A stretch of 60,044 nucleotides of DNA, counting the filler, from Jimgerdemannia flammicorona (lineage: Eukaryota), in assembly GCA_003990765.1 (NCBI GenBank). It is 3 parts of 3 records of this genome, joined end to end, with 100 filler letters (N's around TTAATTAATTAA, not from the genome) between each part and the next. Parts side by side here need not be neighbours in the genome. Positions count along the whole stretch, not along the records: positions 40,100 to 60,044 come from RBNJ01001797.1; 2 more parts are not named here. One strand, 5' to 3'. The position numbers and the translations under genes are program-made. Below the pieces are notes generated by a model that saw nothing but the letters and a program-made list of their open reading frames with translations, was not told the DNA's origin and did no database searches. Below, piece after piece: positions 25,591-58,329 of this stretch (position 1 is its first letter; every line of letters begins with the position of its first letter).

Positions 25591-25599
25591 CATCTGAAT

Positions 25600-30560: not shown

Positions 30561-30578
<18 letters not shown>
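25600..30578 (+). mobile_element. Second copy of the same LINE family, 5'-truncated and more decayed, with poly(A) tail
   Basis: Collinear with the reverse complement of 20051-24880 (e.g. YMWGLRKGLEKW vs YLWGLRKGLEKW; DLTGDRMSME vs DLAGDEMSME). AATAAA at 30528; A-run 30554-30578. Confidence 0.9.
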
Positions 30579-30594
<16 letters not shown>

Positions 30595-30599
30595 TATCT

Positions 30600-33500
30600 G
30601 TCTTAACTTCTACTAGAATCTATATTCTAGCAAATATAGTAACTGATACCAATCTGTCTGATAAAGTAAAATTATTTTCAACTACTATATATATATCTGA
30701 GCCAGAGTTATCTAAGCTAAAAATAATAGTGATTAAGAATAGTAAGACTTTTGATAGCAAAGAGTCTATTAAGAGCAAAGAAAAGTCAAAGTATAAGTTC
30801 TGGAATGAGACTTATTCCAAATTAGAAAATTTTTGAAATATACTAGTAAATTCTAAATAGTAATACAAGAACTATATAAGCTATATCAAGATATATAAAT
30901 ATATATTTTTATAACTTCTAATGAGCCAAGTATGTATAATAAAGTAATAATATCTCCTGACAATAAGAAATAGAAGCAAGTGATAAATAAAGAGTATAAT
31001 TTACTCATTGAGATAGTATATGAGATCTGATATCTCTTCTGATTAATCAATAAGTTATATGATTACATTGAGTCTATAAAATTAAATATAAGAGCAATAG
31101 AAGTATAGAGTAATTAAAATTTCATTTTATAACTAAGAGTTATTTGCAAGATTATAGCATAGACTATAATGAGATATATTTTTTAGTATTTAAGCTTACT
31201 TTATTATTAGATAGTTATAAAGATGACTTTTCTCAATTGTGATATAGATATAGCACTATATGTTTACTAGCTATAACAATATAAATAATTATATACTATT
31301 AAGTAAGCAGCTCATTTGTAGAATAGAAAAATTGATAAATATCTCCTTGATAATGACTTCTTATACTGTAAAGTAGATAACTATATATATGTTCAATAAT
31401 ATATTAAATGAAATTATATTCATAGATAAATAAATAAATAATATAATTATTATTGTGATAAAAAACAAGCTTAATAGAGTCAAAGAAGTTCTGCATAAGA
31501 AATTCAAGGTAACTAATATATATAGATAACATGTCTTTCCTTTTAGAGATATCTATTATATATAATAGAAGTATATATACTATGTATTTCTCACAGTCAA
31601 CTAATATTCAAGCCATTCTTGAATAATTCAAAATAAGTAAATATAAGCTAGTAAATACTCCTATTGAAACTTTAGTAAAGTTAAAGAAGTTAACAATATT
31701 TTCTATTAGTAAGTAGTTAGTTCTCTTATATATATATATCTTATATTAGAAATAAGGCCTGACATCTTATATACTATAAATTAGATAGTGCAGTACTTAT
31801 CTTACTATGATAATTTGTATTAAAGTATCATTAAAAGAGTTTTCAGAATATTAAAAATATATATAGCATACTATGTACTCACCCTTAGTGAATTAAGTGA
31901 GAGTAATAATAATAAGGACAAGAATAACAGTATATAACTATCTGAAACATATGTATAATACTGATTGAGCTAGAAACTTAAATGATCACTGATCTATAAC
32001 TAGATATCTCTTCTAATTAAATAACAAAGAGATTATATCTTAGCAAATATATAAGCAGAGCTCAATGATAATATCATCTATATAAATAGAGTATCAAGTA
32101 TTGTCTATAGTAAATGAGAAAGCTATTTGATTATGCTAGCTATTGAAGAACTTAGCTCTGATCAGAAATATTACTCTATACTCATTCATCAGAGTAACTA
32201 GTCTATAATTACTATGACAAAAAACTCTATTTATTATAGCAGAATAAAGCATATTAATATATAATACTATTTTATAAGAGAAAATATATTGTAATGTAGT
32301 GGATGCGGAACTTGGTAAGTTGGTAGGATTTTGGAATGGGGAAAGAGTATGTAAAGAAGACTTTTTGAATTGAACTGACTTGATCTGACTGAGGTTTATT
32401 TACTCTAGATATGGAGATATTTATACAAGTTTGCTAGCTATAAGATAGCTAAGTTATAACTAAGTTTTCTGTGAGTCATTCTTTACAAGTGTTTAACATC
32501 TGTGAAATCTTCAACATCTGCAAAGAGTTTAACATCTGCGAAAACTTTAACAGTTGTAAAATAACAATGACTGCTATTTATAAAGGTATAGTATAATAAA
32601 TCAGGAAATCAAATTTATGTACTGCAATCAAATGTTTCAATTTCATACCATATGTCACATCTTCTCCCTGAATAGATTATTTTTGACATAAAAATATCTA
32701 TTTAAATTTTTACATTGCAATGTTTATATGTTTGTTCCCCCTATATGGACTTGTTTATAATATTGTATCCAAGTGGTTGTCAGAATGTTTTTCAAGGTCC
32801 TAAAAATCTTCAAATAATTAATTCAGGATTTTGTCTAAGGTTGGACAATATATTCAAAAGTCATCTTCAAAAATTGGGTAGCATTCATATGTTATCAAAA
32901 GTCGGACAACAGCATCTTCAAAGTTTAGGCGGGTGTTCATATGTTGTCAAAAGTCAGATGATGGAATTTTTCAAAAGTTGGGTGGCATTCTTCACTCAGG
33001 CAGTTTGTATATACCATCTTCTATAGGGCAGCAGTTTGTTTGCAACAGGCAGTGTTCTTCAAATAATTAATTTGGGCAGTTCATATACAACATCTTTTAA
33101 TTCTCTATGCCATTGTGGTTTTTTCAGCATTTTAGCAATTAATTCTTGTAATGTTGTCCCTTGAACTAAGGAGTAACCTGGCTATTAACTCAATGATGTG
33201 GTCCTTTGCAGAGCATCTATTGTTCAATACTGACAATGGTTCACAGAAATGAGACTGACAACTACAACAACCAATTAACAGCAGATGGCACAGAGATGAA
33301 TATAATACATAACAGATAGCATTCATATGTCGTCAAAAGTCAGATGACAGCATTCTTCACTCAGGCAGTTTATATGACATCTTTTAATTCTCTATGACAG
33401 TTCATTCAGGTAGTATTCTTCACTCAGGCAGTTTGTATATAATGTCTTCTCTGTTCTTCAGGGCAGTCCATTCATATGTCATCTAAAGTCAGATGGCATC

Positions 33501-35080
33501 TTCTCTCAGGTAGTTTGTATATGACATCTTTTAAATCTCCAGATTGGTTCAGGCATTTGTATGTTGTCAAAAGTCAGATGATGGCATCTTCAAAAGTCGG
33601 AGTGGCAGCATCTTCTATTTTCTATGGCGGTCCATTTGTATGTCATCTCAGGCAGTTCATATATGATGTCTTCAATTCTGCAGTCAAAAATAGGGCAGGA
33701 TTCTTCAAATAATTAACTTGGGCAACATTTTTTAATTCTCCTAAGCAGTCCATTTAGGCAGTATTCTTCACTTGGATAGTTCATATATGATGTCTTCTCT
33801 ATTCTTCAGGGTGGTCCATTCATATGTTGTCTTGGGTGGTTCATATATGATATCTTCAATAGGGTGGCAGTTTGTTTGTATCAGACAGTAGTAATGTTTG
33901 ACATGGTGGTTTGTTTGGTATTTTTCAGTAATTAATTCTTGTAACATTATCTCTTGAACTAAGGAGCAATCCAGCTATTAACTCAATGATGCAGTTCTTT
34001 GCAGAGCATCTATTGTTCAATATCAATGATTCACAGAAACAAGGCTGAAAACCAGAACAATCAATTAACAGCAGATGGCACAGAGATGAACAATGTCTTC
34101 TAATTTACGAAGTTTGTAAATCATATGTCATAGGACAGGTCATATCTTCAAAAGTCAGATTAGTAAATTATATGTCATGGGATAGCTTTGGTCCATATAG
34201 TGATCTTGTTTAGCATGATGGTTCATTCAGCATTTTTTAGCAATTAATTCTTGTAATGTTGTCTCTCAAACTAAGGAGTGACCTAGCTATTAACTCAACA
34301 ATGTGGTCCTTTGCAGAGCATCTATTGTTCAATACTGACAGTTTACAGAAATGAGGCTGACAATCAGAATAAGCAATTAATAGCAGATGGTGTAGAGATG
34401 AACACTATGTACAACATGATGATCTGTATGGTAGTCTGGTAGTCTAGCAGTCTGGTGGTCTGGTGGTTATTCATTTTTCAGCTTAAAAGTAAGGATTCTT
34501 CTTAAATCATCAGCCAATGGGCACCAAGTTGTAATATAGTGGATGCAGAACTTGGTAAGTTGGTAGGATTTTGGAAGGGAGAAAGAGTATGTAAAGAATA
34601 CTTTTTAAATTGAACTGACTTAATCTGACTGAGGTTTATTCACTCTAGATATTGGGGATATTTATACAAGTTTGCTAGCTATAAGGTGGCTAAGTTATGA
34701 CTAAGTTTCCTGTAAGTCATTCTTTACAAGTGTTTAACATCTGCAAAATCTTTAACATCCATGAAGAGTTTAACATCTGTGAAAACTTTAATAGTTGTGA
34801 AATAACAATGACTGCTATTTATAAGGCTATATTATAATAAATCAGGAAATCAAATTTATGTACTGTGATCAAATGTTTTGATTTCATATCATACATCATA
34901 ATATATAGAAAACAAAACTATATATTTAAAATATATCCTTATTAAAGCTCTCCTGAGACCTAATTTCAAGCAATATACTAAAGAAATAAGTCTTATAGTA
35001 AACTATATACCAGTAATTTAACATATATCAGTAATGAATAATTATGAAACATTTTATAATAAAAAGAAAGTAAAAAAATT
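30600..35080 (+). mobile_element. Heavily C>T/G>A-mutated Ty1/copia RT-RNase H relic, interrupted by a nested LTR element
   Basis: Degenerate copia motifs: H*VYKIKYK, ITKSYLQDYSIDYNEIYF (VAKGYxQxxGIDYxETF), IRPDILY, and SRIKHINI*YYFIRE, which resumes after 34900. Confidence 0.8.
32290..34900 (-). mobile_element. Non-autonomous LTR retroelement (about 2.6 kb; LTRs 32290-32659 and 34530-34900) nested in the copia RNase H
   Basis: Two direct repeats of about 370 bp, each starting TGTAAT. On the minus strand, PBS-like TGGTGCCCATTGG abuts one LTR and PPT-like TTCAGGGAGAAGA abuts the other. ATATAT flanks both ends. The interior is non-coding and internally repetitive. Confidence 0.88.
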
Positions 35081-35099
35081 ATTCATTATATCATTTTAT

Positions 35100-37900
35100 A
35101 TATCTCTCTCTTAAAACTATTATATTATATTATAGTTATTTATAGATTTTTTTTCTATATTTGGGTTTTCCTACTATTAGAATCTATCTCTATTCTTCAT
35201 TTTTACTATAGTTTTCTATATTTTAAGCATATATAGATAGTATTCTTTTAGTATATTTATAGTTATTTTGTAATTGTTGCTTAGTTATATTACATTTCTA
35301 CTTATATTATATTCTTTTTTAAATATTATCTCATTGAGCAGGAGTGTTGAAATTCTCATTATTATATATCTCAATAATATTACTTATATAAAACTATATT
35401 TTCTTATAATACTACTACTCTTCTCTCAACTTTATATTTCTAACATTATCTTCTATAGTCCATAACTCTATCTGAAGCTTACTAATTTACTTATAAATTT
35501 ATCCAGATTACTCTCAGTTAGTACTTTTACTACTATCTTCTATAAACTCTATTTCAGCTCCTTATCTAGTCTCTACTCTCTATTTTATTACTCTCTACTA
35601 GTTATCTTATCTATATCTCTTCAAAAAACCCTAGTTAGTTGCTTAAATCTTCTCTATCAATTTCTTATAGACTTTTCTTCAGCTTGTCATTTGATTACCT
35701 TTTGCTTTATTATCTCAACTAATCTTCCCCTCTTCTTCTTCTTTTTAAAAGAGAAATATTCAATCTTTATTAACTCTCACTACTCTTTTAGATACTAAAC
35801 TTTTCCTCAATCTCTACTTTATAATAATCTGATCAAAGATAATACTAAATATTGATCTTATTAAAATATTTTTTCAGTATTCTTCAACTAAAATCTAATC
35901 AATATATATCTTAACTAGACTATTATTAACTGAATATTATTTTGTAAATAGACTAGCTATCTTGTTCCTTTTTTACCAGATAATATCTATTAAGCCTATC
36001 ACTCTTTCTATTTATATATATTCACTTTGTCAAATCAAGAGAGACAGATATATCAATATTTTAGTCAGATCTATCTAATTATCTATCTCTAACTATATAT
36101 ATTAAAATCTTCTCTAAAAATATCCAACATTATCTTATCTAATCTTTCTAAGCTATCTACTTTTTTAGTCATTATTTTTACTCTCTATTAACTATAAAGA
36201 GATAGATAGAATATACTAATAATCTATTATCTATACTCTCTCTTAGCTAAAAATATCTAAACCTCTACCAACTCTCTTCTCTCTATATTAAACGAAATAT
36301 CAATCTGTTATTTTTATTTAATACTATTAAACTATTCTTTACTCTATTTAGCAAAATCTTTCTCACTATAAGCTTTAATATTCTGAGTACTTTTAGCTAT
36401 TAGAAAAGTTAGCTTCTCTTAATATATACTATTATATAACTAATTGATATTAAGAGATAATATTTATATATAAATATTTTATAAGATACATATAATAGTA
36501 AGTTATGACTACTTTTACTACTTCAGCAATCTTTGCAGTCCTTATAATAATGATATTCTTCTACTCATCATAGATAGTTCTTTTAATATACTTTTTATCC
36601 TTACTCTCACAATACTTGATAATATACTCTACTGTTATCTTTTTGATTTCTACTAATCTAATTCTATCTAACTCATAACTCTCACTCTCCAAGAGCTATT
36701 ACTAAGATTAAAATTAACTTTAGATATTAAAAGATAATATTTAAAAAATTGGCCTCTATCTCTTATAATTTATCTAGTACTTAGAATAAATTAAATCAAA
36801 GATAAATTTGATTTAAAGTTCAATTTAAACCTAATTTTTCAAAATTCAATAACTTAACCACAATAAATTCAAATTTAATAAATTATAACTTATTAGATAT
36901 ACCTTATTATAATAAATATAAACAATAAAGCATTTTAAATTTAGATATATTTTTATTAAGATAATATATTTTGAAGTTAGAATTGAATCAGACTCTAACT
37001 CAATTTGAACTCAATTTAATTTGAATTTAATTTAAATTAAAAAACCTCTAATATAATTTGATTTAAATTAATTTAATTTATTTGAAAGCTAGATCTATCA
37101 AATATATCCAACTTCTTAATATTTACTTCTACTAACTTCATCAAAGCTAAATTGAATCAATATTTCTTTACAAAGTCTCTGAGAAAAGATATCTGAAACC
37201 TGGAGATCTAACTTAACTCCTAAAGTATCTTTCTATTCTCTAATATATTTAATGGAATATCTGTAAAATTATTTTCATCAATAGTCTTTATTAGCCTTAC
37301 TATCTTATTAGTCTCTAGATAGTCTCAATATACTCTTATTGTCTCAGTTACATATTTAAATATCCTCTATCTGAATTTTTAATACTATTTCTATCTCTCT
37401 CAAATTTACTCTATAGTATTACAAAATACAGCTATATAAATCTATTTCTTTATTTTACTTTATATATATCTTAGATTATTATTAATATTAATAATACTTA
37501 AAGCTTATTTATATAAATTATATTATTATAGATATTTACTTATCGAGTATAATTGATTTACTTATTGAAAAAAAAAAAAATTATACATCTATATATAATA
37601 TTTTTATTATATTTTTTAAACAGACATAAATAGTTCTTTTTTAGTTTATATACAGTTTTTACAATTTATCATGAATGGTAAGTTACATATATTTTAATAA
37701 TCTGAGAGATCTGATTATATAAAGAGAATGTAAAAAAAACTATTTAATCTTAATATTACTATATTTACAAATCTATTATAATATTATATAATGATATAAA
37801 TTTGTTAATATCTCTAATCAATCAATAACTGTAGAGTAGTAACTGGATCATATTATGTGTATGAATTAATAATTACCCATAAAATAATAATAAGTATTCA
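35100..37900. repeat. Extremely AT-rich degenerate repeat relic, family not assignable
   Basis: Almost no CpG, strong TA excess, no credible ORF. Confidence 0.5.
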
Positions 37901-38951
37901 AAGAATGACTATTATCTGTAAAATGATATTATGTATCCAAAGAATGATAACTATTTTCAGTTTGAAGCAATTAGGCACAACAATCACAATTACCTTCCCT
38001 TAATAGTCAACCCGCAACAGAACTCGTCCCTCTTCCGTTTAAAAAGAATGAATCAAGAAAATTGAAGCATGAAACGAAGAACTCGAATTCAAATTAACAG
38101 AGGCATGCATTACAAGTGTAATTGACACTATTAACAAGCAAGGTCAGAAAGAAACACACAGCTTAACAACAGTTTCTGAGTGTCATTGTTATTGGTTGCG
38201 ATATTTGTTTTTCCCAACCTCAATTGAAAAAATAAAATAAAATTAAAAATTGTATAAGTCCGTTTAGCGTTGTTGTTTCTAGCATGCAAGAAATCTTGTA
38301 CTGGGATGTAAAAGATCTTCCAAAGCCCCCGGGCGCGCCAAAATGGGTACTGATCGAGTGAGGGGAACGAGAAGGGAAGGAGAAGAGGACATCAAAACGA
38401 GCAACAAAGTGAACGTTGGATTTGGCTGGTTAAAGCACGCGCTTCCCAGGCGCCCTCGCCTACGGCGATGAAGACCAACCTTTAATCGTATTTCACTAGG
38501 GATGGGAGGGAGGGGTGCGCGAAAACAGCTTGGGAGCTACTACTAGAGACTAATGCTATGCGAAGTACTGATGCTAAACTATTGTTCGGCTTATTGCTGC
38601 GGTGAATAAAAGTGCCCCTGAATTGTACTAACTATGTATACTACGGTTGGGGTACGCTACGTGTACTGAAATAGACTGTTCTAGGCTCCTTTCGCCTCAG
38701 GGACTTTGCCGCAGTTTGAACTACGTTCATAACTCTGACAATTTCTTTTTTTGAATATTTTTTTTTTCTTATCATACTAGTCAGATCTCCGAGGAAGGAC
38801 GTCTCTACCGGGGATTCTCTTTACAGTTTCGATGATTAGGGTTGGACTGCATGGAGGCTTAGACGGAAGAACCTGTGATAAGTCTCAATCCATAGATTGC
38901 ATGTGACGATCGGGTTCGACCCGAAAAGGGCATACCCTGCAAGGGGCGAAT

Positions 38952-39999
38952 TTGTCAAACACAAGTCCGATATCTTACCTTGCGAACACACGTATACTCA
39001 AAAATATGCAACTATCCTTGTTAAAGGATACCAAGAGTGGCCCCAAGGAAATCAGAGTACTCGTCAAGGTTTCCGCTGCCGATGATGAGCAGGCGAATCT
39101 CATTTACAGCCATTCCTTCGACCTTCAGCGTCTCCAAACCGGTCGATCAATTGCTGTCGAAGTCTTTAACGTAAAACCCAAGTCTACAGACCTCAGAAAT
39201 TATGGCAAAAAGTTATTCTGCGCCCTCTTTTCGGAAGATACATCCAGTTATGCATCGAAGATGTTGCAGGATATATTGCAGTCTCACTCCAAGGGTCGGA
39301 TCCTCCTAGAGCTCAACGGAGACCACGACCTTGACATCATCCCCTGGGAATATGCATGGGGAAACCATGCGTTTCTGGTCCATCAATGCGCATTTTCTCG
39401 CATGTTCAATGTGATTCGAAACCGCTCGCATCCAGATCTAAATCAGAGATTTTCGACGTTTTTTGGAGCCCTCTTTCGAACCGACCCTAACCGAACCATA
39501 TTGGACAATCAGGATGAGCAGCCAAACCTTCCACTGCGCATTGTTGTCGTCGTGCCAGACCCCGTCATCCCCTCAGACCATCCCGACGCCAACCTTCCAG
39601 ATTTGCACTTAAGCGACCAGTTCCAAAACTTCATCAATGGTCACCGTGCCAACACCAAAAAAGTAATATTGGAGCCCGTGTCCCCGCTGACCGTCGATCG
39701 AATGGATGCTTTGCTTATGAACAAGTCCGGGACTGCTACTGTGCTTCATTTCATGGGACACTGCACAGGGGACAATGACAATACAAGGACCCTCATTTTC
39801 GAAAATAGCGAGACTGGCGAACCCGAACACATTGATACCTTACGCCTAATCAGCGCGGCCAAGAACTTGAGCCTCGCGTTTCTGTCCGCCTGCGATACTC
39901 GCAGTGTTGCCCGCGTCCTGTTGGAGTACGGTGTTCCATATACCATTGGTTCATGCTGTTCCTTGCCAGACGATCTCGCCCGCAAATTTGAGTCCAAGT
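38952..39999 (+). CDS. CHAT-domain (caspase-like, clan CD) protease gene, 3'-truncated by contig end
   Basis: LDIIPWEYA, LRIVVVVPDP, VLHFMGHC (His at 39759), LIFEN, LAFLSACDT (Cys at 39891) and GVPYTIG are typical CHAT motifs. First ATG at 39006; true start uncertain. Confidence 0.85.
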
Positions 40000-40099
40000 N
40001 NNNNNNNNNNNNNNNNNNNNNNNNNNNNNNNNNNNNNNNNNNNTTAATTAATTAANNNNNNNNNNNNNNNNNNNNNNNNNNNNNNNNNNNNNNNNNNNN
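40000..40099. other. Artificial contig-join spacer (N44 + TTAATTAATTAA + N44)
   Basis: Same 100-nt structure as 19951-20050. Confidence 0.97.
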
Positions 40100-42780: not shown

Positions 42781-43020
42781 ATCCTTCAACTCCGCCCTTG
42801 CGACACTGTCTTGCGCAAAATTCCTTCACTTCACTCCAGATAACTACACAAGTTCCCTTTAGGTATGCCAAATTACTTTACAGCTGGCCACGCGCTCATC
42901 ATTGGAGCTGGCACTCAACCCTCTAACTGGCTGGCCACGGTCCTCAAACAGCCATCGCTGTGTGCCTACCTGGAGCATAAGGTCAAGGTCCTTGTAGGCG
43001 GAATCATCCAGGGGCTGGAT
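42781..43020 (+). pseudogene. Third, 5'-only and internally deleted remnant of the caspase-like gene plus its upstream region
   Basis: MPNYFTAGHALIIGAGT/NWLATVLKQPSLCAYLEHKVKVLVGG matches 56114 onward. Upstream CCTTCACTTCACTC..GAT.ACTACACAA is shared with 56070-56100. Confidence 0.85.
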
Positions 43021-43527
43021 AACAAAACTGAAAGGTGCGCAATATGCATTTTTTCTAGGGGAAGGGAAGATAAATTTGGACTATGTAACTTTCACACAGA
43101 TACTGCGCGGTGGATCGATGAGTTGGTGACAGCCGAAGGGGGATTGCGGACAAGTTCTTTGTTTGTCTACAAACGTGAACGAGAAGTTTGGGAGCATATC
43201 AAAGAGACCATTGAAAAAAACCATATCCTCTATGCGAAAATGCTCTTACATGTAATTTTATGGCGACGCAATCCTCAAGGCCCGAGAGAAGGTTATTTAT
43301 TGTTGACCTTTCCGTTGCTATAAATGTTAGCTAAAGGCATCTTAATGTTATATGTAGTGTGAGCGGCCTTTCAAATACGCGCTCAATTACGTCTCTTTTG
43401 AGAACATGGGCATATCAGAATGTCCGAGCGCGCGAACCCTGTTCAGTACTTGATCAACTTAAAAGAATGGCGGGCAATGCGATAACGTCATCAGTTGAAT
43501 TTCCAGAACACAGTAGAGGAAACCTAT

Positions 43528-43581
<54 letters not shown>

Positions 43582-44909
43582 TCATACAAAGATTTGGCAA
43601 CGATGCCCGCGGAGAATACGATGGAGCAACTGCTCTAACCTTCCCATCACCATCGCAACCATGCTTGGTTTCTTGTCATTTCTTTGTACGCAGCTGCTAT
43701 CGAGGTCATTCACGTTTCTTTTTTTAACATTACGATTCTATAGAACAATCTCGGGGGCACTTTCGTTGCTCGATGGCTTGGAACCGTCGATTGTATTTAC
43801 GGATACAAGCAATAATTTCACGCTAGAATGGCGTGTTAAATGCATTCATTTGCGACAGAATCCGGTTTGGATATAGAAACATTCTTTTGCGCAAATGGCA
43901 GGGGTAGGCCAGGAAACAAACTAAACATCTAATCAGGTGCGGTGCCACTGGAATTCGAGACACATTTTGCGACGATATCATAGAAATGCCTTGGAACCGA
44001 CATAGAGATTTTTACGCCTCGTTAGTGAAAGTATATATAAGCTTAGTTTATATTATTATTATATAATTAGACTCTATGCTAATAAATATGTAAAATATCC
44101 CTTAGCTCATTTTCCATTTAATTTTAAACAAAATAAAAAATTCTGGTAATATAGAGGAACTGAGGGGCAGCGATATGAATAGTGTTATATTGGAATCACC
44201 GTGTTATCACCGGCTCGCTTTCGAACTATACATCGCGTCTCCGATACCATCGAGCTCCACATCATCGCCTCACTAATCCACACCGAACCAACGGTTTCTG
44301 ATGCGTTGAATACGGAAATGTAATCATACGGATCTCAAAAATACTTATTAAAAAATAATACTCAACTACAGCTCTGGGGGAGCGCGGGGTAAATTTCTCG
44401 ATGCCTGGATAACGACACCATATATTTATTTTGTTTACTTGGTATGCAGTGTCTCCCAAGATCCATTTTTCTGGCTCTACAATCATGTGATATCCAGTCA
44501 GACCCCGTTAATAGAGTTACGTGAAGAAGTAATACCGGCGTGCACGGCAATAGATACGCATCCATAGTTCTCAATTCGTTACACTAACTCATAGATTTTC
44601 TGACCCATAGTTGAACTCACAAAGTGCGAATGACGTCAAGCACAATTTTTATATAATGTGACCGAGATTGAATTACTGGATCCGTTAGTCGGAGACACGA
44701 GAGTAATTCTGGGATACATTGTTGCGACAGGATGTATACGTAGAGTGCGTTCCCATTATGTGTAAGTGTAGAAAGAAAGCGACAGAACCTTTAATTTTGA
44801 TGATCATGTTAAAACACGCCATCCGTTTCTCACATGTGCCATTTCATTAATATTGAAATAATTCCTACAAATATATTAATGGAGGACTTCTGTGTGGCAT
44901 TTTGCTATT

Positions 44910-45910
44910 TCACCGCCTCCAACCGTCTATACCATTTGTATAGCTGAAGTTGGCATTATCACCAAGCTGGTTTTGACCGGTAAGCGTAGGATCGTTGATG
45001 TGTTCAACGGTTATCGTGTTACTGTAGGTTGGAGCGGACATACATCTGCGGTCTCTTCCGTCTTCCTCATCACTGTCGATATCAACTCGAACCTCATATC
45101 ACCGAGCAACGGAAACTGGCTCGCCAATCCAGTAGTGCAGTGCCCTACCATAAAGTTATCTCACTTGTAGTCGAAACACGGTTGCCGCATTTTGATCTTG
45201 AAGGTAGCATATCCCACGCATGCCGCAAAGATATCGGAGCAGTATACCTCGGCCTTACCGGCCTCCTTGCCCTTACCCGAGAACCCGCGGGAGAGCCCGA
45301 TTGAAAAGACGCTGTATGTCTTATTCTTTACCGAGAGCCCGGTATGGACCTTTTGCGATGGTCGCACCGCGGACAGATAGGCGAAACCAGCAACCTGCTG
45401 AGTTGTTTGTCGCTAGCGGCGTGGCATTCCGACCAGGACCGAGGGTCGCTTCACTGTCGCCGCCGCGTTTTGTCATGACACGGCTGGCGTAGCAAGCGTT
45501 CAGGAGCAGTAAAACCCGACCCTCGAACGCCCGTAGATTGTCGGACAGCAGGTCCCCGTCGATGCCGCGGGTGGCGGCGGATCCATTGCCCTGCAATTAG
45601 AAGGGATCAGGTAGATCTTCGAGTTTCCTTCCCTGAAATAAAACACCACAACACTGCACTGCTCTTCGGAGTTGAGGAACAGAATTTTGAGGGCATCCAG
45701 CTCCTCGACGATGCGTTCTCATGTGGAGTATCCGCCTACGAAAACCTTGACCTGGTGCTCCGAGTAGGCGCACAGCGACGACTATTTGAGGACCGTAGCG
45801 AGCCAGTTGGCGTCGTTGATCGTACTTTTGTACATTTTGGGGGGCACACCTTTTATATCCGTCCCTGTTCCGAAGATGAGCGCGTGGCCTGCTGTAAAAT
45901 ATTTTGCCAT
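44910..45910 (-). pseudogene. Caspase-like (peptidase C14) protease pseudogene with C-terminal RHIM-like motif
   Basis: Paralogue of 56114-57145. Nonsense codons at 45782 (CAG>TAG) and 45161 (GGA>TGA), frameshifts, and the catalytic SGHG is destroyed. LLNACYA and the C-terminal ITVEHINDPTLTGQNQLGDNANFSY remain readable. Confidence 0.9.
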
Positions 45911-46199
45911 ATCCTTGGAGGGAACTTGTGTAGTTTTCTGGAGCGAAGTGACGGAATTTCGCCCAGAATAGCGTGAAAAGGGTCGGAGTTTCTAATCCAT
46001 CGGACTTGATTATTGGCGTGCAGTCGAACAAGTTAGGTAGTGCATGTGATTGTTTTCCACAGAAAAATAAACACTTCCGGTTTAGCCCTTTTGCATTCGG
46101 GATACTTTATATATTTATCCACGCTCTGCGTAGCTGCGGTAAATATTTAACTTCGCCTTTTTGACCCCCCTCGCTTGTCGCTGCGACTCCACGTTTCCA

Positions 46200-47443
46200 A
46201 TGGCTCGTAATCATCAACCTCCACCCTCGCATGGTCCATCCCCGTATGGTCCGCATGTTCCACCTCCACCCCAACATGCGCAGAACATACATGTAAGTGA
46301 AGTAAACGGACCTGCTTTCGCTGGACAAACTAGCATTGGTAATAATGCAAATTTTGGTAAGTACGACGTCCGTATGTCGAACTTGTCCTTTGAGCCGTCG
46401 ACCTAACCTCTCATTTTGACGTCTGTGGCAGAGTATACCAATTTGATAGTGAACCTCCAGCATAACCCGATACGCGCTTCGGGACCGGCTTACAAGCGAC
46501 TGGAAAGATATGCCCTTGAATTTGGGTTCGATTTTCAAAAGGTAATCAAATTATCATTTCGCTCTAGATCGTCGTCTAGTTTCGCGGGATTTACCGTGTT
46601 TTAACGTGCGTAATCCCTGTGCCTCCTCACCAGGACAATCCCAGGTTGCGAACTGCGCTAACTAAACACGTCACCCCCGCGGAGATAATCTTGCACGTTT
46701 CTGCAATACTGGGGGATGTTGAGGTCATCAGACTGCTCGTACAAACGGAAGGGGAGTACGAGGTATACGTGGACGCACGGCTTTGGGATGGTTGGACGCC
46801 ACTCCATCAGGCCGTGCGTTGTGGCAAGATTGAGGTGGTTTCCTTGCTTCTTCTAGAGCTCAGTGCTGAGGTGGATAAGGTGACGCTGGATGACAAGGGT
46901 CTGACGGCATTGCACGTCGCCGCGCTATATAACCGCGCGGAGATCGCGACGGTGATCGGCATAGCGCACCCGAACGTGGAGGCAAGGTCCAAGAAGGACT
47001 GGACGCCATTGCACGTCGCCGCCATGTGCGGACATGCAGAGGCGGCCGCCGCAATCGTCAACCTGAACGCCGACCGGCACGCGACGACCGATCGCAACTG
47101 GACCCCGATGCATTGCGCCGCGTTTGAGGGGCACGCGGATGCGCTGCGGGAGATCGCGCGTGTCCCGGGGACCGACGTTAACATGAAGGCTGTGGATGGT
47201 TGGACGCCCTTGCATTTGGCCGCAGCCGCTGGACACGCTAAGACGGTTGGGGTACTCTTGATGCTCCATGTCAAAATCAACGCGAAGGACGAAAATGGAC
47301 TCAATCCCCTTTCTGTGGCCAAAATGAAAGGGCACACGGAGGTGGTGAGGGTTCTCAAGCATCATGGAGGTGTTTTTGGCAGTATTCGGGACATATTTCG
47401 TGCATACTTGGAAAATCGAAAGTCATCCATGGAAAGACAGTAA
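46200..47443 (+). CDS. Ankyrin-repeat protein A (about 358 aa): Pro-rich N-terminus, RHIM-like motif, about 7 ANK repeats
   Basis: Exons 46200-46356, 46432-46541 and 46634-47443 (GTAAGT..CTAAC..GGCAG; GTAATC..CCAG) splice in frame. Repeats include GWTPLHQAV, GLTALHVAA, DWTPLHVAA, NWTPMHCAA and GWTPLHLAA. Confidence 0.92.
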
Positions 47444-48082
47444 GATATGGCCGTTATATCGAATGTGTCTTCCTATTCGTATTTGATCATTTCCGGCAAT
47501 GTATTTATGAATGCAACGATAATGTAACATGCATAGCATCCGTAATATTTCGAAATACATATGGGGCATGGCTCCGCCATTCGTTAATCGTCCGAGGAGG
47601 AAAACCATACATCCTTGGTTGTGCCCCCATCCAAATACCAACGTTTATTTCCCTTAATGGCAAAGCACCAGACTTTAAATCAGGCAACCGCGTTGTCAAT
47701 ACCAATGCAATTACCCTCTAGGTTCAAGGGGTCTGATATTGATCCCTCATGGCCGAAGTGTTCCATAATGACATGGATCATCAACACCGTGACAATTACT
47801 CTGGAGTTTTATCAAATATCAACGACGTGACTTGCCAAGGAAGCTAGCGTATCCGTTAGTCAGAGAATCGATAAGGAAACTTCACCAGAGACAATTGCAT
47901 ATTGTCACGAGCAATAGCGACCTAATTACTCTGAACACGAAAATACTCCGTTCGCTAAGTCTTCACATGAAAGGAATGCTGATATCTCAATACCTTTTAT
48001 AACCACCTTTGTGGAATATTTTGTAATATTTACTATATTGCTTTATTATATTCGACACGGACAGAACACAGTTATGCTCCAC

Positions 48083-49570
48083 TTATCTATTCTCCGTATC
48101 CTTGACCGCACGAGGGCTAGGTGCTCGTTGAAAAAACCCGCATGCAGTTGTCCCGTCGGATTTCACCAGAGGGCACGCGAATACGTACTGTTCGTCGCGC
48201 CGGCTGATTATCGTTGTGTCCCTGACCATATTACATAAGACAGAACAGTTGCAAACTGGCACGGCGGTCGCGCTAGGTACCGGCACAGGGACTTTTGCCC
48301 AGAGGATGTAGTCACACCCGCTAGTCCTGGTGCCGGTGGCATCGTAGGTGGCAGTATCGCAGGCCCAGTAATACCTCCCCCGGTTCACAGACCTCCAACT
48401 GGTCGCTCGTTTGTATACTAGCATGCTTCCACATGTACAATTCCCCAAAATAGGAGGCTCCCTCTGGAAGGGGTTCGCCAATAATGTGAGCGAGGTGTCA
48501 GTGGTGTGAATCCATAATAGCTTCTGATGATGGTGTAGAAATCCCAACCGAGGAAGAGCACAAAGGCAATGTAGCCGAAGAAGAGGCTGACTTTGAAAAC
48601 GTTACACCTGTAAGGAAAATAAAAAGAAGGATGAGATTGACGGCGGCACAATGTATTAGTGATGCACGTGCATAGGTATGTATGGGATCGGAAAGGTTCG
48701 ATCCAAAATGAATCTCATTCGGAACCAAAATTGGATTAAACCTCCCCGGCCACATATCCACCAAAAATGCGATACCCACCAACGATTGAACTTTACGACT
48801 GACAGCACAAGGCCAATCCCCCAGAACGCGGCAAGAAGGTGGTCGAAGACAGTAACAATAACGGACCACGACATGAAAAACGTGCGCCTACAGTAGACGT
48901 ATATGAAGTACACATCCGCGGTGACGGAGATACAACGACTACAGCTACGAAGTAGAAGTCCGAGACGTCGCTCTTTGGATGTGATGCCTGTGGAGAGGAG
49001 GGAGGATAAACAAGGGAGGATGTATGAGTCCTCGAATTAGAATTTGAGATACCGACAGATTGAAATTCGAGCCTCTACGGATCTGGTGTATCATGCATGC
49101 TCGTGTTTTGCCAACTCTTTCTCTTTCTCCTCATTCCTTTTTCCCAGAACCTCAACAGCCCATTCCATACTTACCAAGAACGCCCCAATCTGGAACGCAA
49201 ATTATGCCGCGCTCGCGAACGCCTGCCTGATCCTCATCCACAACCACTTCTTTGAGAGCTGGTGCCAAACCGAGAACCTCGATGGTCTCGAAGCGGACGG
49301 GGTGGCCGCTGGGGACGGGATGGTTGCTGGGGGTCTTCGTCGGTTGCTGACGAGTGATTGCTTCACTACCCCCTATCCCACCCCCGACCCCAACCCCATC
49401 CTCTACCACACTCCCGACCCCTTGCGCTCCCCCTTTCCAGCCAGTGACAATCTCTTCCCCGACCATATCATGCGCTTGCCCCGTAACCCCGACCGCACAA
49501 CCGCAGTCTCCGTATTTGGTTCCCAGACCTTCCCCAGGACCCGCGCCACCTCTTCAACCACTTTGTACGA
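48083..49570 (-). pseudogene. Pseudogene of the MARVEL-like 4-TM / GRF zinc-finger gene
   Basis: Same exon structure as 52484-54023. It has TCA>TAA in exon 1 (about 49203), a 1-nt deletion in exon 2, a frameshift in exon 3, and the 5' part of exon 1 is locally inverted. Confidence 0.85.
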
Positions 49571-52483: not shown

Positions 52484-54023
52484 ATGTCCCACCACCATAC
52501 CTCCAACCCCATGGGCTCCCCCCCTCCCGCTAGTGGCAATCTCTTCACCAACAACACCTTCCCCAGCTCCCGCGCCACCTCCTCACCCACTTTGTACGGG
52601 CCCACGCCCACTGCCACGCCCCCCCCCTACGAAGAACAAACCATCCCCGTCGCCAAATCGGAATCGGATAACCGTGCCGCTTCACGGCAGTCCGCGCACC
52701 CGCAAAGAGATACACAAGGTGGTGGCGGAAGCAGAAGCAACACTCCGCCCCAAGCGGACACCCCACCTGTTCGCACGCCACCGAGGCGCTCGGTTTGGCA
52801 CCAGCTCCCAATGAAGTGGTTATGGGTGAGGATTGGGCAGGCTTTAGCGAGCGCGGCGTCATTTGCGTTCCAAATTGGGGCGTCCCCGGTGAGTAGGGAA
52901 TGGGCTGACGGTTGGAGGGGTGTGGTTTTAGGGAAACTGGAATGAGGAGAGAGAAAATGGTGGTGGGAGACAAGCATGCATGGGACACCAGATCAATAGA
53001 GGCCAAGACAGAAACAATCGACCCAACTTCCTTTTCTCCATATCGCAATTTCTAAACGTCGTCCCTCTTTGACCATCCTTCCTCTGTGCAGGCAACCGGA
53101 GGAGAACCCATCCCAATGGCCGACGTCTCTGACTTCTATTTCGTAGCTGTAGTCGCTTGTCTCTCAGTGATTGCGGACGTGTACTTCATATACGTCTTCT
53201 GTGCGAACGCGTTTCTCAAACGGTGGCCCGTTATCGTTACCGTCTTCGACCTGCTTCTTGCTGCGTTCTGGGGGATTGGCCTCGTGCTGTCGGTTGTAAA
53301 TTTCCGGTGCCCGGTGAGCGGTTACAATCATTGGTATATATCGCATTCCGGGTGGATATGAGGCCGGAGATGTGCAATTCGGTTCTGATTCCGAGTGAGA
53401 GACATTTTGAATCGAAAACCTTTTCGATCCCCTACTTATATACATGCATCGCTAATCCATCGTCCTGCCACCCACCTCATTCTCCTTTTCATCCTTACAT
53501 CAGGTGCGACGTCTTCAATGTTAGCCTCTTCTTCGGCTACATCGCCTTCTTGCTCTTCCTCTGCACGCTCGGTTGGGATTTCTACACCATCGTCAGGAGC
53601 TATTGTGGAAGGCGCCGCAACTTCACCTCGGCCATATTGACGACGAACCCCTTTCAAAGGGAGCCTCCTACGATGGGGAACTGTGAAAAGTGTAGCGGCA
53701 TGCTGGTATACAGACGAGAGACCGATTGGGACTCCGAGGACAAGGGGAGGTATTTCTGGGAATGCAATAATGGCACGTACAATGAGAGTGGCACCAGGAC
53801 TGGCGGGTGCTCCTACGCCATCTGGGCACAAGACCCTGTGCCGGTACCTGGCGCAACCGCTGTGCCGTTCTGCAGATGCGGTCTCCTCTGTGATGTGACC
53901 AGGGCCGAAACGGCGAGTAGGCGGCGCGGCGAACAGTACGTTTTCATGTGCCCTCTGGTAATGACTAATGGCACAACGGTATGCAGGTTTCTCCAACAGG
54001 CATCCAGCCCTCGTACGGTCTAG
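52484..54023 (+). CDS. About 388-aa protein: disordered N-terminus, MARVEL-like four-TM domain, two C-terminal GRF-type zinc fingers
   Basis: Exons 52484-52888, 53092-53333 and 53504-54023 splice in frame. TM segments LWVRIGQALASAASFAFQIGA, FYFVAVVACLSVIADVYFIYVF, IVTVFDLLLAAFWGIGLVLSV and FNVSLFFGYIAFLLFLCTLGW, with loop RCPVSGYNHWC. Fingers CEKC...KGRYFWEC...GCSYAIW and CRCG...QYVFMC...VCRF. Confidence 0.85.
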
Positions 54024-54535
54024 GGTATGGAGATATTGATAATTTCTACGTTGAAGGAACTCAACAGTATACTATAGTTGTCCAATATAATTAATAAAGT
54101 AATAGAGTGAAATATTATAGAGTAATCCGCACAGGTGATTAAGAATGTTCCTAAATATCGATGTGTCGGCTCTCTTATTATGTGGAGGCTCAGCAAACGA
54201 AGCATTACCATATTAAATGACTATTGCTCGTGATAGCATGCAATTGCTTCTAGTGACAATCCCTAGATCGATGTGCTGGTTGGCTGATCGATGAAAGGCG
54301 GCGCTTAATAAGAGCCCGGCGTCATTTCTTCCCGCTATCTCGGATAGTGCATTTTTCCAGCTCGGACGATATGTAAAATGGCGGAGCAATGCCGGTTGGA
54401 ATTTCATATGGCAATATTATATTCTCGCGACATTCATAGGTGTTAAATACATTTCAAGTACGAATAGAAAGTCATATTCAAAATAACACTATCGTTCCAT
54501 GGACGACGTTCTGTTGATTTTCTAATTCCTTAAAA

Positions 54536-55742
54536 CTATGTGCGAAATGTGTCCCGAATACTGCGAACAACACCTCCGTGATGCTTGAGAACCCTCGCCA
54601 CCTCCTTGTGCCCTTTCATTTTGGCCAGAGAGAGGGGAGTGAGCCCATTCTCGTCCTTCGCGTTGACTTTGGCATGAAGCATCACGAGCACCCCAACCGC
54701 CTTCGTGTGCCCAGCGGCTGCGGCCAAATGCAAGGGCGTCCACCCATCCACAGCCTTCACGTTCACGTCCGTCCCCGAGACACGCGCTATCTCTCGCAGC
54801 GCGTCCGCATGCCCCTTAAACGCGGCCCAGTGCATCGGGGTCCAATTGCGAGGAGCGGTCGCCGCGTACTGGTTCGCGTTCAGCTTGACGATCGCGGCCG
54901 CCACCTCTGCGTTGCCCCAAATCGCGGCGACGTGCAATGGCGTCAAGTTACTCTTGGACTTTGCTTCCACGTTTGCGTTCGCCTCGCCGATCACCGTCGC
55001 GATTTTCGCACGGTCATATCGCGCGGCGATGTGCAGTGCCGTCAGACTGTCGTCATCCTGCGTCGTCTTATCCACGTCGGCATCGAGTTCGAAGACAAGC
55101 AAGGACACCACATCCACCATGCCGCATAACACAGCGTTATGGAGTGGCGTCCAACCATTCGGAAGCGTTGCGTCCACATATATCTCGTACTCCCCGCCAT
55201 CTTCCACGAGCAGCTTGACGACCTCAATATCTCCCAATACTACACAAACGTGCAAGATTATCTCCGCGGGTGTGATGAAATTTCTTCGCAACCGGGGATT
55301 GTCCTGGTGAGGAGATAGGGGATTGCGCATGTTAGACACATTTTCAATCCTGCGAAATAAGGCGGCTTTGTTGAGCGAAGTGATACTCTCATTACCTTTT
55401 GAAAATCGAAGCCAAATTCCAGAGCATATCTTTCCAGCCGCTTGTGTGCCGGTCCTGTAGCGTGTATCGGGTTGTTCTGAAGTTGCAATACCAAATTGTT
55501 GTACTCTGTCACAGAAGTCAAAACTGGATTAGTTCGACGGCTCGAAAGGACAGGGTTGACATTCCGACGCCGTACTTACGGAAATTTGCGTTATCACCAA
55601 TGCTGGTTTCTCCAGCGAAAGCAGGTCCGTTTACCCCACTGACATTGAGGTTCTGCCCATGCTGGGGTGGAGGTGGAACTTGCGGGGATGGACCTTGCGG
55701 GGATGGACCGTTCTGGGGTGGAGGATGTTGGTTCCGAGCCAT
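54536..55742 (-). CDS. Ankyrin-repeat protein B (about 346 aa): Pro-rich N-terminus, RHIM-like motif, about 7 ANK repeats
   Basis: Exons 55742-55580, 55505-55396 and 55303-54536 splice in frame, with the same intron phases as copy A. Confidence 0.92.
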
Positions 55743-56113
55743 TGGAAACGTGAAATCTCAGCGAGAACCGAGGGGGGCCAAAAAGCAATGATAAATATTT
55801 ACCGCAGCCTCGCGGAGAGTGAATTATATAACGAACTCACCGATTTGAATGCAAAAGGGGAAACCCGGGATTGTTCGCTTTTCTTAGTAACCCAAGCACC
55901 TGTTCTGTCAAACCTGTTCGACTGCGGTATATGGTGTGACCAAAAGAGATTGGTCCCTGATTATAGTCAATCAACAGGTACCACAGTCATTTAGGCTTTT
56001 TCCGGTGGGATGAGTAATCCTTCAACTCGGCCCATATAATACCCCTGTCATACTGGCCTTCGCGAAAGTCCTTCACTTCACTCTAGATCACTACACAAAT
56101 TCCCTCCAAGGCT
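55743..56113. promoter_or_regulatory. Putative bidirectional promoter between the ankyrin and caspase-like genes
   Basis: 371 bp between divergent ATGs; the paralogous interval 45911-46199 is 289 bp. The caspase-proximal block is conserved in three copies. Promoter function is inferred from position only. Confidence 0.55.
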
Positions 56114-57145
56114 ATGGCAAATAATTTTACAGCTGGCCACGCGCTTATCATCGGAACGGGCACCGATAACGACGGTCAAATCACCAAGGATTACAAAAGC
56201 ACGATCAACGACGCCAACTGGCTAGCCACCGTCCTCAAACAGCCGTCGCTGTGCGCCTACCCGAAGCACCAGGTCAAAGTCCTCGTAGGCGGAGACGCCA
56301 CACGCGAAAACATCATCAAGGAGCTGGATGCCCTCAAGACTCGGGTCTTCAACTCCGACGAGAAGTGCAGTGTTGTGGTGTTTTTTTCGGGTCACGGAAA
56401 ACGCGACGTGTCCAAGACCTACCTGATCCCTTCCAATTACAGGGCCAACGACCCACTGGCCACCCACGCCATCGACGGAGACCTGCTGTACGACAAGCTG
56501 CGGGCGATCGAGGGTCGGGTTTTGCTACTCCTGAACGCTTGCTACGCCGGCGGTGTCATGCCAAAACTCGGCGGTGACGGTGAGGTAAACCTCGGTCCTG
56601 GTCAGAACGCCACGCCGCTTAGCGACAAGCAACTCAGCAGGTTGCTGGACGGAAAAGGGTTCGCCTATCTGTCCGCGGCGCAATCATCGCAAAAGGCCAA
56701 CACCGGGTTCTTTGTAAAGAATGCGAATAAGACGTACAGCCCCTTCACGATCGGTCTCTCCCGCGGGTTCTCGGGCAAGGGCAAGGAGGATAGTAATGGC
56801 GAGGTGCGCTGCTCCGATATCATTGCGGCATGCGTGGGATATGTCACCTCCCACACCAAGTTGCAGCAACCGTGTTTCGACTACAAGGGAGAAAACTATG
56901 TAGTGGGCCACTACACGGCCGGGGCGGCGAGCGAGTTTCCTTTGCTCGGTGACGACTTGCCGTTCGAAGTTGACATCGAAAGTGCGGAGGAAGACGAAAT
57001 ACACCACAGAAATACGCCCGCCCCAACCTACAACAACACGATAACCGTTCAACACGTCTCTGGCCCTGCGCTTGTCGGTCACGTCCAGATTGGTAATAAT
57101 CCCAACTTCAGCTATACAAATAGCGTAAACCGTTGGAGAGGGTGA
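56114..57145 (+). CDS. Intronless caspase-like (peptidase C14 / metacaspase-type) protease with C-terminal RHIM-like motif, 343 aa
   Basis: HALIIG, INDA, ATRENI, VVVFFSGHG (His94), VLLLLNACYAG (Cys143), YLSAAQSSQKA, YSPFTIGL and QQP. An acidic linker leads to ITVQHVSGPALVGHVQIGNNPNFSY. Confidence 0.93.
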   Translation: MANNFTAGHALIIGTGTDNDGQITKDYKSTINDANWLATVLKQPSLCAYPKHQVKVLVGGDATRENIIKELDALKTRVFNSDEKCSVVVFFSGHGKRDVSKTYLIPSNYRANDPLATHAIDGDLLYDKLRAIEGRVLLLLNACYAGGVMPKLGGDGEVNLGPGQNATPLSDKQLSRLLDGKGFAYLSAAQSSQKANTGFFVKNANKTYSPFTIGLSRGFSGKGKEDSNGEVRCSDIIAACVGYVTSHTKLQQPCFDYKGENYVVGHYTAGAASEFPLLGDDLPFEVDIESAEEDEIHHRNTPAPTYNNTITVQHVSGPALVGHVQIGNNPNFSYTNSVNRWRG

Positions 57146-58329
57146 ATTGGTAAAATACCAAATAGAAATCCTCCATTTAACGTATTGTGGACATTATGTC
57201 ATCATTAATGTGTGCAAATGGATGTGTTTCAACATGGCTACCATATGTTGGGGACGAACTCTATGTATATATCCTGTTGCTGCAATGTATAACCAAAATT
57301 ACCGCTTTCGCTCAATCTCAACGCAACTATGTTACAAATCGTGCTTAAGGTCGTTCGCTCATTGTTAACCCCTGGCCATAAAACCTATTCGAGTTAAAGT
57401 AACAAAATGAGCACTGTCGATGCGTATATCCTGCCGCGCACGCAGGTATTATTTCATTGTCCGGAGGTCGCATAACAAGCGTCTACCTCAAAAAATTTAT
57501 ATATTTAATTCATATACATAATACATATAACTGTTGACATATGAAAACTTAATGTTCCATAAATGCAGACGCCATATGATAACGGGCCGTACCGCATCGA
57601 CATTGATTACTAATGTGTCAACGTGTGTTCTCATTGATCCAATTCCCGAATCAAAATACACGAGGACGCCGTCACTGAGTCGATTACGATGAGACAATTG
57701 AAATATGTGACTCCATGCGATTGCCTTAAACCAAGGAGATAACAAAGGGAAAGAGATAGCGCTCTTCCGAGGGTTCAGCTGTGATGCTACTATACGTCTT
57801 CGGATGTGGTTAGTGCCATCTGCCTATTGTAATGACAGGAACGTGCGCAATATATATACCTCAACGTCGGAGGTCAAAGGAGATTGAACTTTGTCAGAAA
57901 ATTCTGTTTAAAGTGTTTTTTTGGGACACACATGAACGTCGTTGGGCAACATTCACAAGAAATAACATAGAATTACATAGATATGAATGTTTTCAAACCG
58001 GGTAGCAAATTATTGTTTAAGGTTGTGGCGCCACGAGGAGCCAGATATGTAACTGTCATTATTCTCATTGTCAAGGATCGAAAGCACAAGGGACCCCATT
58101 CATTCAAACGGCTTAAAGGGTGGTTAATAGCATAATGAGACTCATAATATTTTGCGGCTCAATACCCCATGGGCAAATCAAGGTCTCTTTGCAGAATAAA
58201 ATAAAAATGCATACAATTTCGAAGTCAAGAGCAATTGTTGGGGCAACGATGTTGCTACGATATTGTGACGAGCATATACTATAGCATAGCCAGATCATGT
58301 ACAAAGAACACTTAGCATAGTTACCCCTC

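Follow-up and report, generated by a model that had tools for sequence, protein, structure and literature searches.

A caspase-like protease and a divergently transcribed ankyrin-repeat protein share a candidate adaptor motif in Jimgerdemannia flammicorona

In fungal amyloid signaling, short motifs join the products of adjacent genes. In the HET-S/NWD2 (HRAM), PP-motif HELLP/NLR, sigma, and PUASM pairs, a stretch of 20–30 residues at the C-terminus of an effector recurs at the N-terminus of an adjacently encoded repeat partner. The HRAM, PP, sigma, and PUASM families pair nucleotide-binding oligomerization domain (NOD)-like receptors (NLRs) with HeLo, HeLo-like, SesA, SesB, and PNP_UDP effectors in Ascomycota, and further amyloid-motif candidates occur in Basidiomycota (PMC9815663). 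Bacteria follow a related principle, in which adjacent genes have a small effector-associated domain (EAD) in common; through this adaptor, a regulatory core obtains its effector, in many cases a caspase-like peptidase (PMC7159879). EAD10 is also found on repeat proteins without the NTPase of signal transduction ATPases with numerous domains (STAND) (PMC8195603), and TIR and CHAT domains can bear bacterial amyloid signaling sequences (BASS; bioRxiv 10.1101/2020.01.06.895854). The known settings of motif-joined pairs are Ascomycota and Basidiomycota (pore-formers, lipases, PNP_UDP) and multicellular bacteria (EAD/BASS-linked). Here, we analyzed a stretch of 60,044 nucleotides, filler included (the window), from the genome of the early-diverging soil fungus Jimgerdemannia flammicorona (Endogonales, Mucoromycota; GCA_003990765.1). 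At positions 54536–57145, a caspase-like protease gene and an ankyrin (ANK) repeat gene lie head to head and share a motif of about 25 residues rich in Gly and Asn (G/N-rich).

The locus resembles the fungal amyloid pairs in its layout and in the character of the motif, a G/N-rich stretch outside the folded domains in which hydrophobic residues are interspersed. The family of the motif, the lineage, the class of effector (for a eukaryote), and the architecture of the partner set it apart from them: the partner has no NACHT/NB-ARC domain, the effector is a Peptidase_C14 and not a HeLo, HELL, SesA, SesB, or PNP_UDP protein, the host belongs to Mucoromycota, and the motif gave no Pfam match to those families. 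Fungal gasdermin clusters, where CHAT or S8 proteases are fused to ANK, TPR, or WD40 repeats (PMC12881547, PMC10197012), likewise tie a caspase-superfamily protease functionally to ANK-type repeats in two-gene clusters, not necessarily with a NOD. In those clusters, however, protease and repeats form one polypeptide and the neighboring gene encodes a gasdermin, whereas here two proteins are joined at most by the motif. A Pfam scan of the window open reading frames (ORFs) of at least 110 aa showed no gasdermin family; a multi-exon gene could escape such a scan. Literature searches found no paper joining Jimgerdemannia and caspase, and the combination of 'amyloid signaling' with Peptidase_C14 returned one unrelated review only. 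The main text of PMC9815663 names no caspase, Peptidase_C14, or Mucoromycota; its supplements and those of the BASS papers may contain such cases.

The gene pair and its shared motif

The product of the protease gene (P0001, Table 1) has a clan CD caspase fold. It matched Pfam Peptidase_C14 (PF00656) with E = 8.1e-14 and 52.3 bits, against a cut-off of 21.4, and carries the catalytic dyad His94 (in SGHG) and Cys143 (in NACYAGG), of which Cys143 was invariant in 20/20 aligned caspase sequences. The AlphaFold2 model calculated from the 20-sequence alignment has a confident core at about residues 8–280; its top Foldseek matches, with E between 7e-9 and 1e-6, were to metacaspases, legumain, MALT1, and caspases. 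The predicted local distance difference test (pLDDT) score fell below 50 in the loop after the catalytic Cys (residues 145–165) and throughout the tail (residues 287–343). The gene was covered by an unspliced RNA contig in two runs, starting at 56094 or 56096 and extending past 57300. The acidic linker that joins the fold to the motif opens with a PLLGDD..F-D/E-I/V-D/E junction (residues 276–290, 56939–56983), and an LLGDD-like regular expression matched 24/31 members of the family described below. It is a speculation that this junction could serve as an autoprocessing site freeing the protease from the motif.

The spliced product of the three-exon ANK gene was identical, letter for letter, to an NCBI J. 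flammicorona protein of 346 aa (P0026). Its introns (55579–55506 and 55395–55304, GT..AG on the minus strand) were removed exactly in RNA contigs of two runs from one organism, and the contigs covered 54413–55761, starting some 19 nt upstream of the ATG and extending past the stop codon. The contigs of both genes, together with the NCBI match, confirm that the pair consists of real, transcribed genes lying head to head, as proposed in the initial annotation. Contig depth was unequal between the two genes and is no guide to expression rank; soil/root metatranscriptome runs X3 and X4 gave only short pieces of 151–245 nt. In X2, a second run with this organism label, the pair (54413–57300) differs at single bases and lacks 3 nt at 54850 within the ANK repeats; the repeat region may vary between alleles or strains.

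The ANK protein matched Pfam Ank_2 (E = 1.4e-44) and four further ANK families above the cut-off. Its motif occupies residues 32–56 of 346, the last two residues crossing the splice with 5 nt from exon 2. In the AlphaFold2 model, residues 1–54 had a pLDDT below 50 and were followed by helices at 56–65 and 74–84 and by seven helix-pair repeats. The N-terminus stayed undocked at low confidence, which is little informative either way for an alignment of two sequences. The motif is separated from the repeats by 47 residues holding two helices, and the protein does not have the build of an NLR or STAND receptor: the Pfam list of full-length P0026 contained ANK families only, with NACHT/NB-ARC absent, and exon 1 gave no match. 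Since the spliced transcript matches the gene model and leaves no room for more exons, the lack of a NOD in the ANK protein, also claimed at the outset, is real.

A six-frame regular-expression scan of the window found exactly four copies of the motif, the same four that had been listed initially. They are located C-terminally on the caspase and its pseudogene copy, and near the N-terminus on both ANK genes. BLASTP aligned the caspase with ANK exon 1 without a gap (11/23 identical, E = 5e-5). A hidden Markov model (HMM) of 29 caspase tails, excluding that of the window's own caspase, was searched against 1280 sequences, comprising all window ORFs of at least 30 aa and the retrieved database proteins. 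It retrieved the ANK proteins P0029 and P0026 (E = 4e-5 and 6e-5), both exon-1 ORFs of the ANK genes (E = 2.5e-5 and 8.6e-5), and the tail of the pseudogene (E = 0.0019), the best unrelated window ORF having E = 0.42. The proposed placement, C-terminal on a Peptidase_C14 effector and N-terminal on a repeat protein, was borne out by translation, BLASTP, and HMM alike. Both copies of the pair lie in low-confidence segments of the AlphaFold2 models, outside the folded domains, which suggests that the motif is disordered in both proteins.

The pair forms one arm of an inverted duplication (~44845–49482 versus 57210–52745), with a piecewise identity of 72–88%. The two motif copies attributed to the other arm (arm 1) are present, but the caspase of that arm turned out to be a pseudogene that is interrupted by in-frame stops and no longer has SGHG. 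Its ANK paralogue is intact: the spliced coding sequence equals P0029, has canonical splice sites, and is 72% identical to P0026 (BLASTP), with the motif at 46287–46356 plus the splice. The two ANK paralogues differ by a dS of 0.36 with an overall dN/dS of 0.42. By region, dN/dS was 0.71 for the Pro-rich N-terminus, 0.17 for the motif, 0.30 for the linker, and 0.47 for the repeats; the motif was the most constrained region of the protein, with a value that comes from 26 codons, a small sample.

These values bear on the least likely of the alternatives, namely that there is no coupling at all. The ANK gene would then be a decayed remnant, for example of an NLR without its NOD, or exon 1 would have been gained in a repeat-rich, rearranging region, and the motif would be a relic. 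Duplications and retroelements do abound in the region, which also has a pseudogene and a truncated third copy of the caspase; furthermore, the partner architecture was confined to one locus in the databases searched. However, both ANK paralogues remained intact over a dS of 0.36, their motif being the part under the strongest constraint, and two runs show transcription and correct splicing of the gene. We rejected a recent duplication of the motif DNA, because only 35/70 nt of the motif-coding stretches were identical between caspase and ANK gene. With the DNA at 50% identity and the protein-level match still significant, the resemblance was maintained at the protein level and does not stem from a fresh copy. 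The ANK motif was also closer to the family profile than the tail of the window's own caspase. Altogether, we regard an absence of functional coupling as very improbable.

Tailed caspases of fungi and prokaryotes

In an exhaustive phmmer search with the caspase, the number of representatives was 3282 at E ≤ 1e-3 and fell to 772 at E ≤ 1e-10 and to 20 at E ≤ 1e-30, with the best protease relatives in Endogone sp. and J. flammicorona. The closest relatives (n = 31, ~310–410 aa) carry G/N-rich tails behind an acidic linker. Jimgerdemannia, Endogone, and Calcarisporiella are among their sources, and the 10 representatives looked up include proteins of J. flammicorona (5), Endogone sp. (1), and Calcarisporiella thermophila (2); J. 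flammicorona has at least six tailed paralogues. In the Pfam scan of 26 representatives, the fungal-type members contained the caspase domain alone. Caspase domain, acidic linker, and G/N-rich tail were all retained in the 20-sequence alignment, with two invariant tail glycines. The last 30 residues of the 31 members consist of 17% N and 16% G, as compared with 5% N and 9% G elsewhere in the proteins. By eye, glycines recur at intervals along the roughly 30 residues of the tail end, which in many cases closes with [FI]-G-[DN]-N-x-N-F-S. Conservation in relatives, on which the initial annotation had staked its proposal, was found in the tails of these 31 members. The consensus given there, hxVxxhxGPAhxGxxxIG(N/D)NxNFxY, describes a real motif but is too narrow for the family, in which no Q is conserved.

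Further searches added no members. A metagenome scan with the caspase alignment produced 189 pattern matches and no confirmed relative, a contig scan with the single protein P0131 found none, and a search of the ESM Atlas with the tail gave no usable match. Two J. flammicorona proteins with a C-terminal caspase and an 'NGPAF'-type tail, P0036 (781 aa) and P0173 (1188 aa), were considered as fused forms and rejected: their N-terminal parts have no Pfam domain, and SGDG replaces SGHG. Merging of gene models at a degenerate paralogue probably accounts for both.

The suggested kinship with RHIM (RIP homotypic interaction motif) did not survive comparison with the family. The phi-Q-phi-G tetrad (phi, hydrophobic) was present in 1/31 tails and in 0/2 ANK N-termini. 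The single case is the window's own caspase, the only sequence with VQIG (followed by N-N), which appears to resemble the core of RIPK3. The likeness to the RHIM of RIPK1/RIPK3 is confined to this one sequence and to comparably short motif lengths, whereas the core tetrad is not conserved in the tail family and PF12721 gave no match. Searches with the Pfam models of RHIM, PP/Ses_B, HET-s, sigma, and EAD found no match in 20 family members (E ≤ 10) or in ANK exon 1 (E ≤ 1), within the limits of the HMMER filters, which may lose very weak matches. The PP/BASS3 signature G-phi-Q-phi-G (bioRxiv 10.1101/2020.01.06.895854) occurred in 0/31 tails. At the sequence level, the motif constitutes a separate family. 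By position, it corresponds to the fungal amyloid signaling motifs, being C-terminal on an effector and N-terminal on the partner encoded by the adjacent gene.

Outside the fungal clade, the relatives of the caspase were prokaryotic, with about 30–40% identity to the window caspase among the 150 listed of the 772 representatives at E ≤ 1e-10. A profile search of contigs provided 79 caspase loci, mostly from Chloroflexota, cyanobacteria, and Methanothrix, and many of their caspase ORFs have short G-rich C-terminal tails. Among the 26 representatives scanned, EAD7 was found C-terminal to the caspase in three, which is the position of the fungal motif; further modules were AAA_35 (two), DUF900 (two), NACHT/NB-ARC, TIR, VWA, and TCAD. 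Several of the 26 representatives contain EAD7, AAA_35, or other modules typical of NTP-dependent conflict systems.

For 77 caspase tails of these loci, each tail was compared with all other ORFs of the same locus or of a mismatched locus (E < 0.01). Any match was obtained for 25/77 tails at the same locus, as compared with 6/77 and 4/77 in two mismatched controls. Matches within the first 120 residues of an ORF of at least 500 aa numbered 15/77 at the same locus and 0/77 in each control. NACHT/NB-ARC domains were present in 17/20 of the matched neighbor ORFs scanned, many of which also had TPR, HEAT, or FGE-sulfatase domains. EAD10 (PF19954) was located at the start of 5/20 of these neighbors, and an EAD10 core was seen in the tail of 5/20 scanned bacterial caspases, one of them above the gathering threshold. 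What the bacterial EAD/BASS systems have in common with the fungal locus is a homologous caspase with a tail that recurs at the N-terminus of a sensor-type neighbor. In contrast to the mostly NACHT/NB-ARC-containing bacterial partners, the fungal partner has ANK repeats only; the fungal motifs have no EAD match, and the pair is eukaryotic with an intron-containing ANK gene. The initial annotation had listed a caspase effector among the unusual parts; taken as a claim of no precedent, this was overstated: these bacterial homologues are coupled by a motif to adjacent NACHT/NB-ARC proteins, and caspase-like effectors of EAD systems are described in PMC7159879.

Caspase and TIR domains are joined to an EAD10 core in the single chain of one cyanobacterial protein (L047:4962-6689, plus strand). 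A likeness of the fungal tails to bacterial '...VNGPILSG...' tails was dropped as anecdotal, having no profile match. At locus L024, a single caspase tail matched the N-termini of three neighboring ORFs, of which two were scanned; both contain EAD10 and NB-ARC.

That one bacterial tail can match three neighbors, both scanned ones with NB-ARC, is relevant to a second alternative, in which the ANK protein and the caspases would be clients of an unlinked motif-bearing hub, such as a STAND/NLR protein or another scaffold. The ANK protein would then be co-recruited and not a sensor, and the adjacency of the genes would be incidental or co-regulatory. The numbers in J. flammicorona are compatible with such a hub, as an ANK partner was found at one locus only for at least six tailed caspase paralogues. 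The window did not provide a candidate, however: NACHT/NB-ARC was absent by Pfam from 67 window ORFs of at least 110 aa, and the exon 1 query found no long motif-bearing protein. NLRs are reported to be few in the Mucoromycota sampled in PMC12258605, and the head-to-head order of the two genes is maintained in both duplication arms. A hub therefore appears unlikely to us, although it is the strongest of the competing explanations.

Possible adaptor role of the motif

From the sequences, we consider the chances about even that the motif is a homotypic adaptor and that the caspase is activated by proximity on the ANK protein. The pair would form a two-component module of effector and partner, as in cell-death and immunity systems. 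The effector would be the clan CD caspase with its flexible acidic linker and a G/N-rich tail of 25–30 residues, and the partner the seven-repeat ANK protein without a NOD, showing the motif in a probably disordered N-terminal segment. The caspase and ANK copies would associate, with templated co-assembly of beta-strands (beta-arch, amyloid-like) as the most probable mode, since the motif does not have the length to fold by itself. An amyloid-like mode is favored over a folded adaptor by the G/N-rich composition with spaced hydrophobics, by the low-confidence termini, and by the position shared with EAD and amyloid motifs. Co-assembly would gather caspase molecules on the ANK protein, where proximity would activate them. 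The module may descend from bacterial conflict systems, in which a short motif at the terminus of homologous caspases recurs N-terminally on a neighboring NACHT/NB-ARC protein. The steps that we infer are that the two proteins bind physically, that the motif is amyloid in character, that the ANK repeats sense a ligand, and that clustering activates the caspase. In a more specific form, the tails would represent a new prion-like motif family of Endogonales and Calcarisporiella that drives templated caspase polymerization nucleated by a NOD-less ANK sensor; we put this forward tentatively and find it rather doubtful.

Several observations weigh against a coupling of the caspase to its ANK neighbor. 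The caspase/ANK pairing is known from one locus, the second copy being a local duplication. No motif protein of the ANK type was found beyond the ANK protein and its local paralogue with exon 1 as the query (96–2000 aa) or with residues 1–110 (190–606 aa), in searches that need shared 5-residue words and would let diverged motifs escape. The tail HMM fitted the window's own caspase weakly (E = 0.011). Motif identities counted by eye were 12/25 and 13/25 within the arms, as compared with 14/25 and 11/25 across them; by this comparison, the cognate caspase/ANK pair is no more alike than a cross-arm pair. The fungal tail profile, searched against 6089 ORFs of the 79 prokaryotic loci, gave no match at E ≤ 1 (best E = 1.9, unrelated). 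The bacterial parallel therefore consists of homology in the caspase domain and analogy in the tail, and homology of the motifs is not shown. Finally, an ANK-only protein lacks an obvious ligand-driven oligomerization with which to nucleate an amyloid. Appreciable weight therefore stays with the alternatives.

The last point leads to a third alternative, which makes the ANK protein a regulator. It could act as a decoy or cap that blocks or buffers polymerization of the tail, or as a substrate or targeting adaptor recruited through the motif. CARD-only proteins act as decoys for caspase-1. The absence of a NOD would suit such a role, and so would arm 1, where the ANK gene is intact and constrained although the adjacent caspase is a pseudogene. 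Its retention beside a pseudogene implies that the function of the ANK protein is independent of its own neighbor. EAD10 on bacterial repeat proteins without a STAND NTPase (PMC8195603) is a further parallel. On the other side, the repeats evolve faster (0.47) than the motif (0.17), as expected of a recognition surface, and no result separates a regulator from a sensor. We judge a regulatory role to be quite unlikely, more so than a hub.

If the specific, prion-like form of the reading is true, the locus would represent a 'caspase on a filament' pathway of a eukaryote, minimal and inflammasome-like, with a heritage from bacterial caspase/NLR conflict systems and with the NTPase dispensed with. 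If the adaptor reading is right, the principle of motif-joined pairs would extend to Mucoromycota, in which few NLRs are reported for the sampled species (PMC12258605), to a caspase-family effector in a eukaryote, and to a partner with recognition repeats and no NTPase. The fungal caspase clade, with caspases of bacterial NLR-linked conflict systems as its nearest outside relatives, would offer an evolutionary bridge. It bears on how proximity-activated caspases were first wired to sensors, and on whether a NOD is needed to nucleate motif-based signaling.

Duplication arms and other features of the window

The start codons of the head-to-head caspase and ANK genes are about 370 bp apart. The limits of the divergent region between them (Table 1) were taken from the contig ends of the ANK (minus strand, 55761) and caspase (plus strand, 56094/56096) transcripts, which are a weak guide to the RNA ends. 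The head-to-head order is present in both arms. The pseudogene in arm 1 was recognized through the inverted-repeat arms I2, I7, I8, I11, and I19 (complementarity 77–87%), and the third caspase fragment through the direct repeats D10 and D11, which match 56042–56293 at 81–87%.

Table 1. Coordinates of the caspase/ANK pair, its duplicated copies, and their parts in the window
Feature	Position	Strand	Details
Caspase-like protease gene (P0001)	56114..57145	+	single exon, 343 aa and stop
Acidic low-confidence linker of caspase	56939..57040	+	residues 276–309, between caspase fold and motif
C-terminal G/N-rich motif of caspase	57041..57115	+	residues 310–334 of 343
Shared divergent intergenic region	55762..56093	.	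~330 bp between the two transcript starts
ANK exon 1	55580..55742	-	start codon, Pro-rich N-terminus, motif 55649-55580
ANK exon 2	55396..55505	-	residues 55–91, two-helix linker
ANK exon 3 with stop	54536..55303	-	seven ankyrin repeats, residues ~103–334
Arm-1 ANK paralogue (P0029)	46200..47443	+	exons 46200-46356, 46432-46541, 46634-47443 (stop included); 358 aa, intact
Arm-1 caspase copy, pseudogene	44910..45910	-	in-frame stops, SGHG lost; motif remnant 45014-44940
Truncated third caspase 5' fragment	42795..43323	+	translation without catalytic region and without motif

A Cys-rich ORF without a Pfam match adjoins each ANK copy (53133–54023, plus strand; 48083–48601, minus strand) and is kept between the arms (inverted repeat I5, 74%). 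Its conservation beside both ANK copies indicates that the duplicated unit comprises at least three genes.

An open frame encoding a CHAT domain of the caspase superfamily (38907–40000, plus strand; Pfam E = 1.8e-11) lies some 16 kb away from the pair and enters the N runs at 40000–40043 and 40056–40099; it is a second, unrelated caspase-type protease gene. Pieces of a Ty3/gypsy-type retroelement were found at 2130–6014 (plus strand), with dUTPase and aspartyl protease, reverse transcriptase, RNase H, and a Tf2-type SH3 domain. In the region of about 20000–30400, the GC skew switches from about -0.5 (20–26 kb) to +0.5 (26–30 kb). Nested inverted repeats are present there (20072–20439 versus 29988–30355, and several at ~23.9–26.6 kb), flanked by the N run at 19951–20050, and the region looks like a large palindromic or fold-back structure. 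The adjoining stretch from 30000 to 38000 is very AT-rich (GC 0.20–0.33) and includes several direct repeat families at 32.3–34.9 kb.

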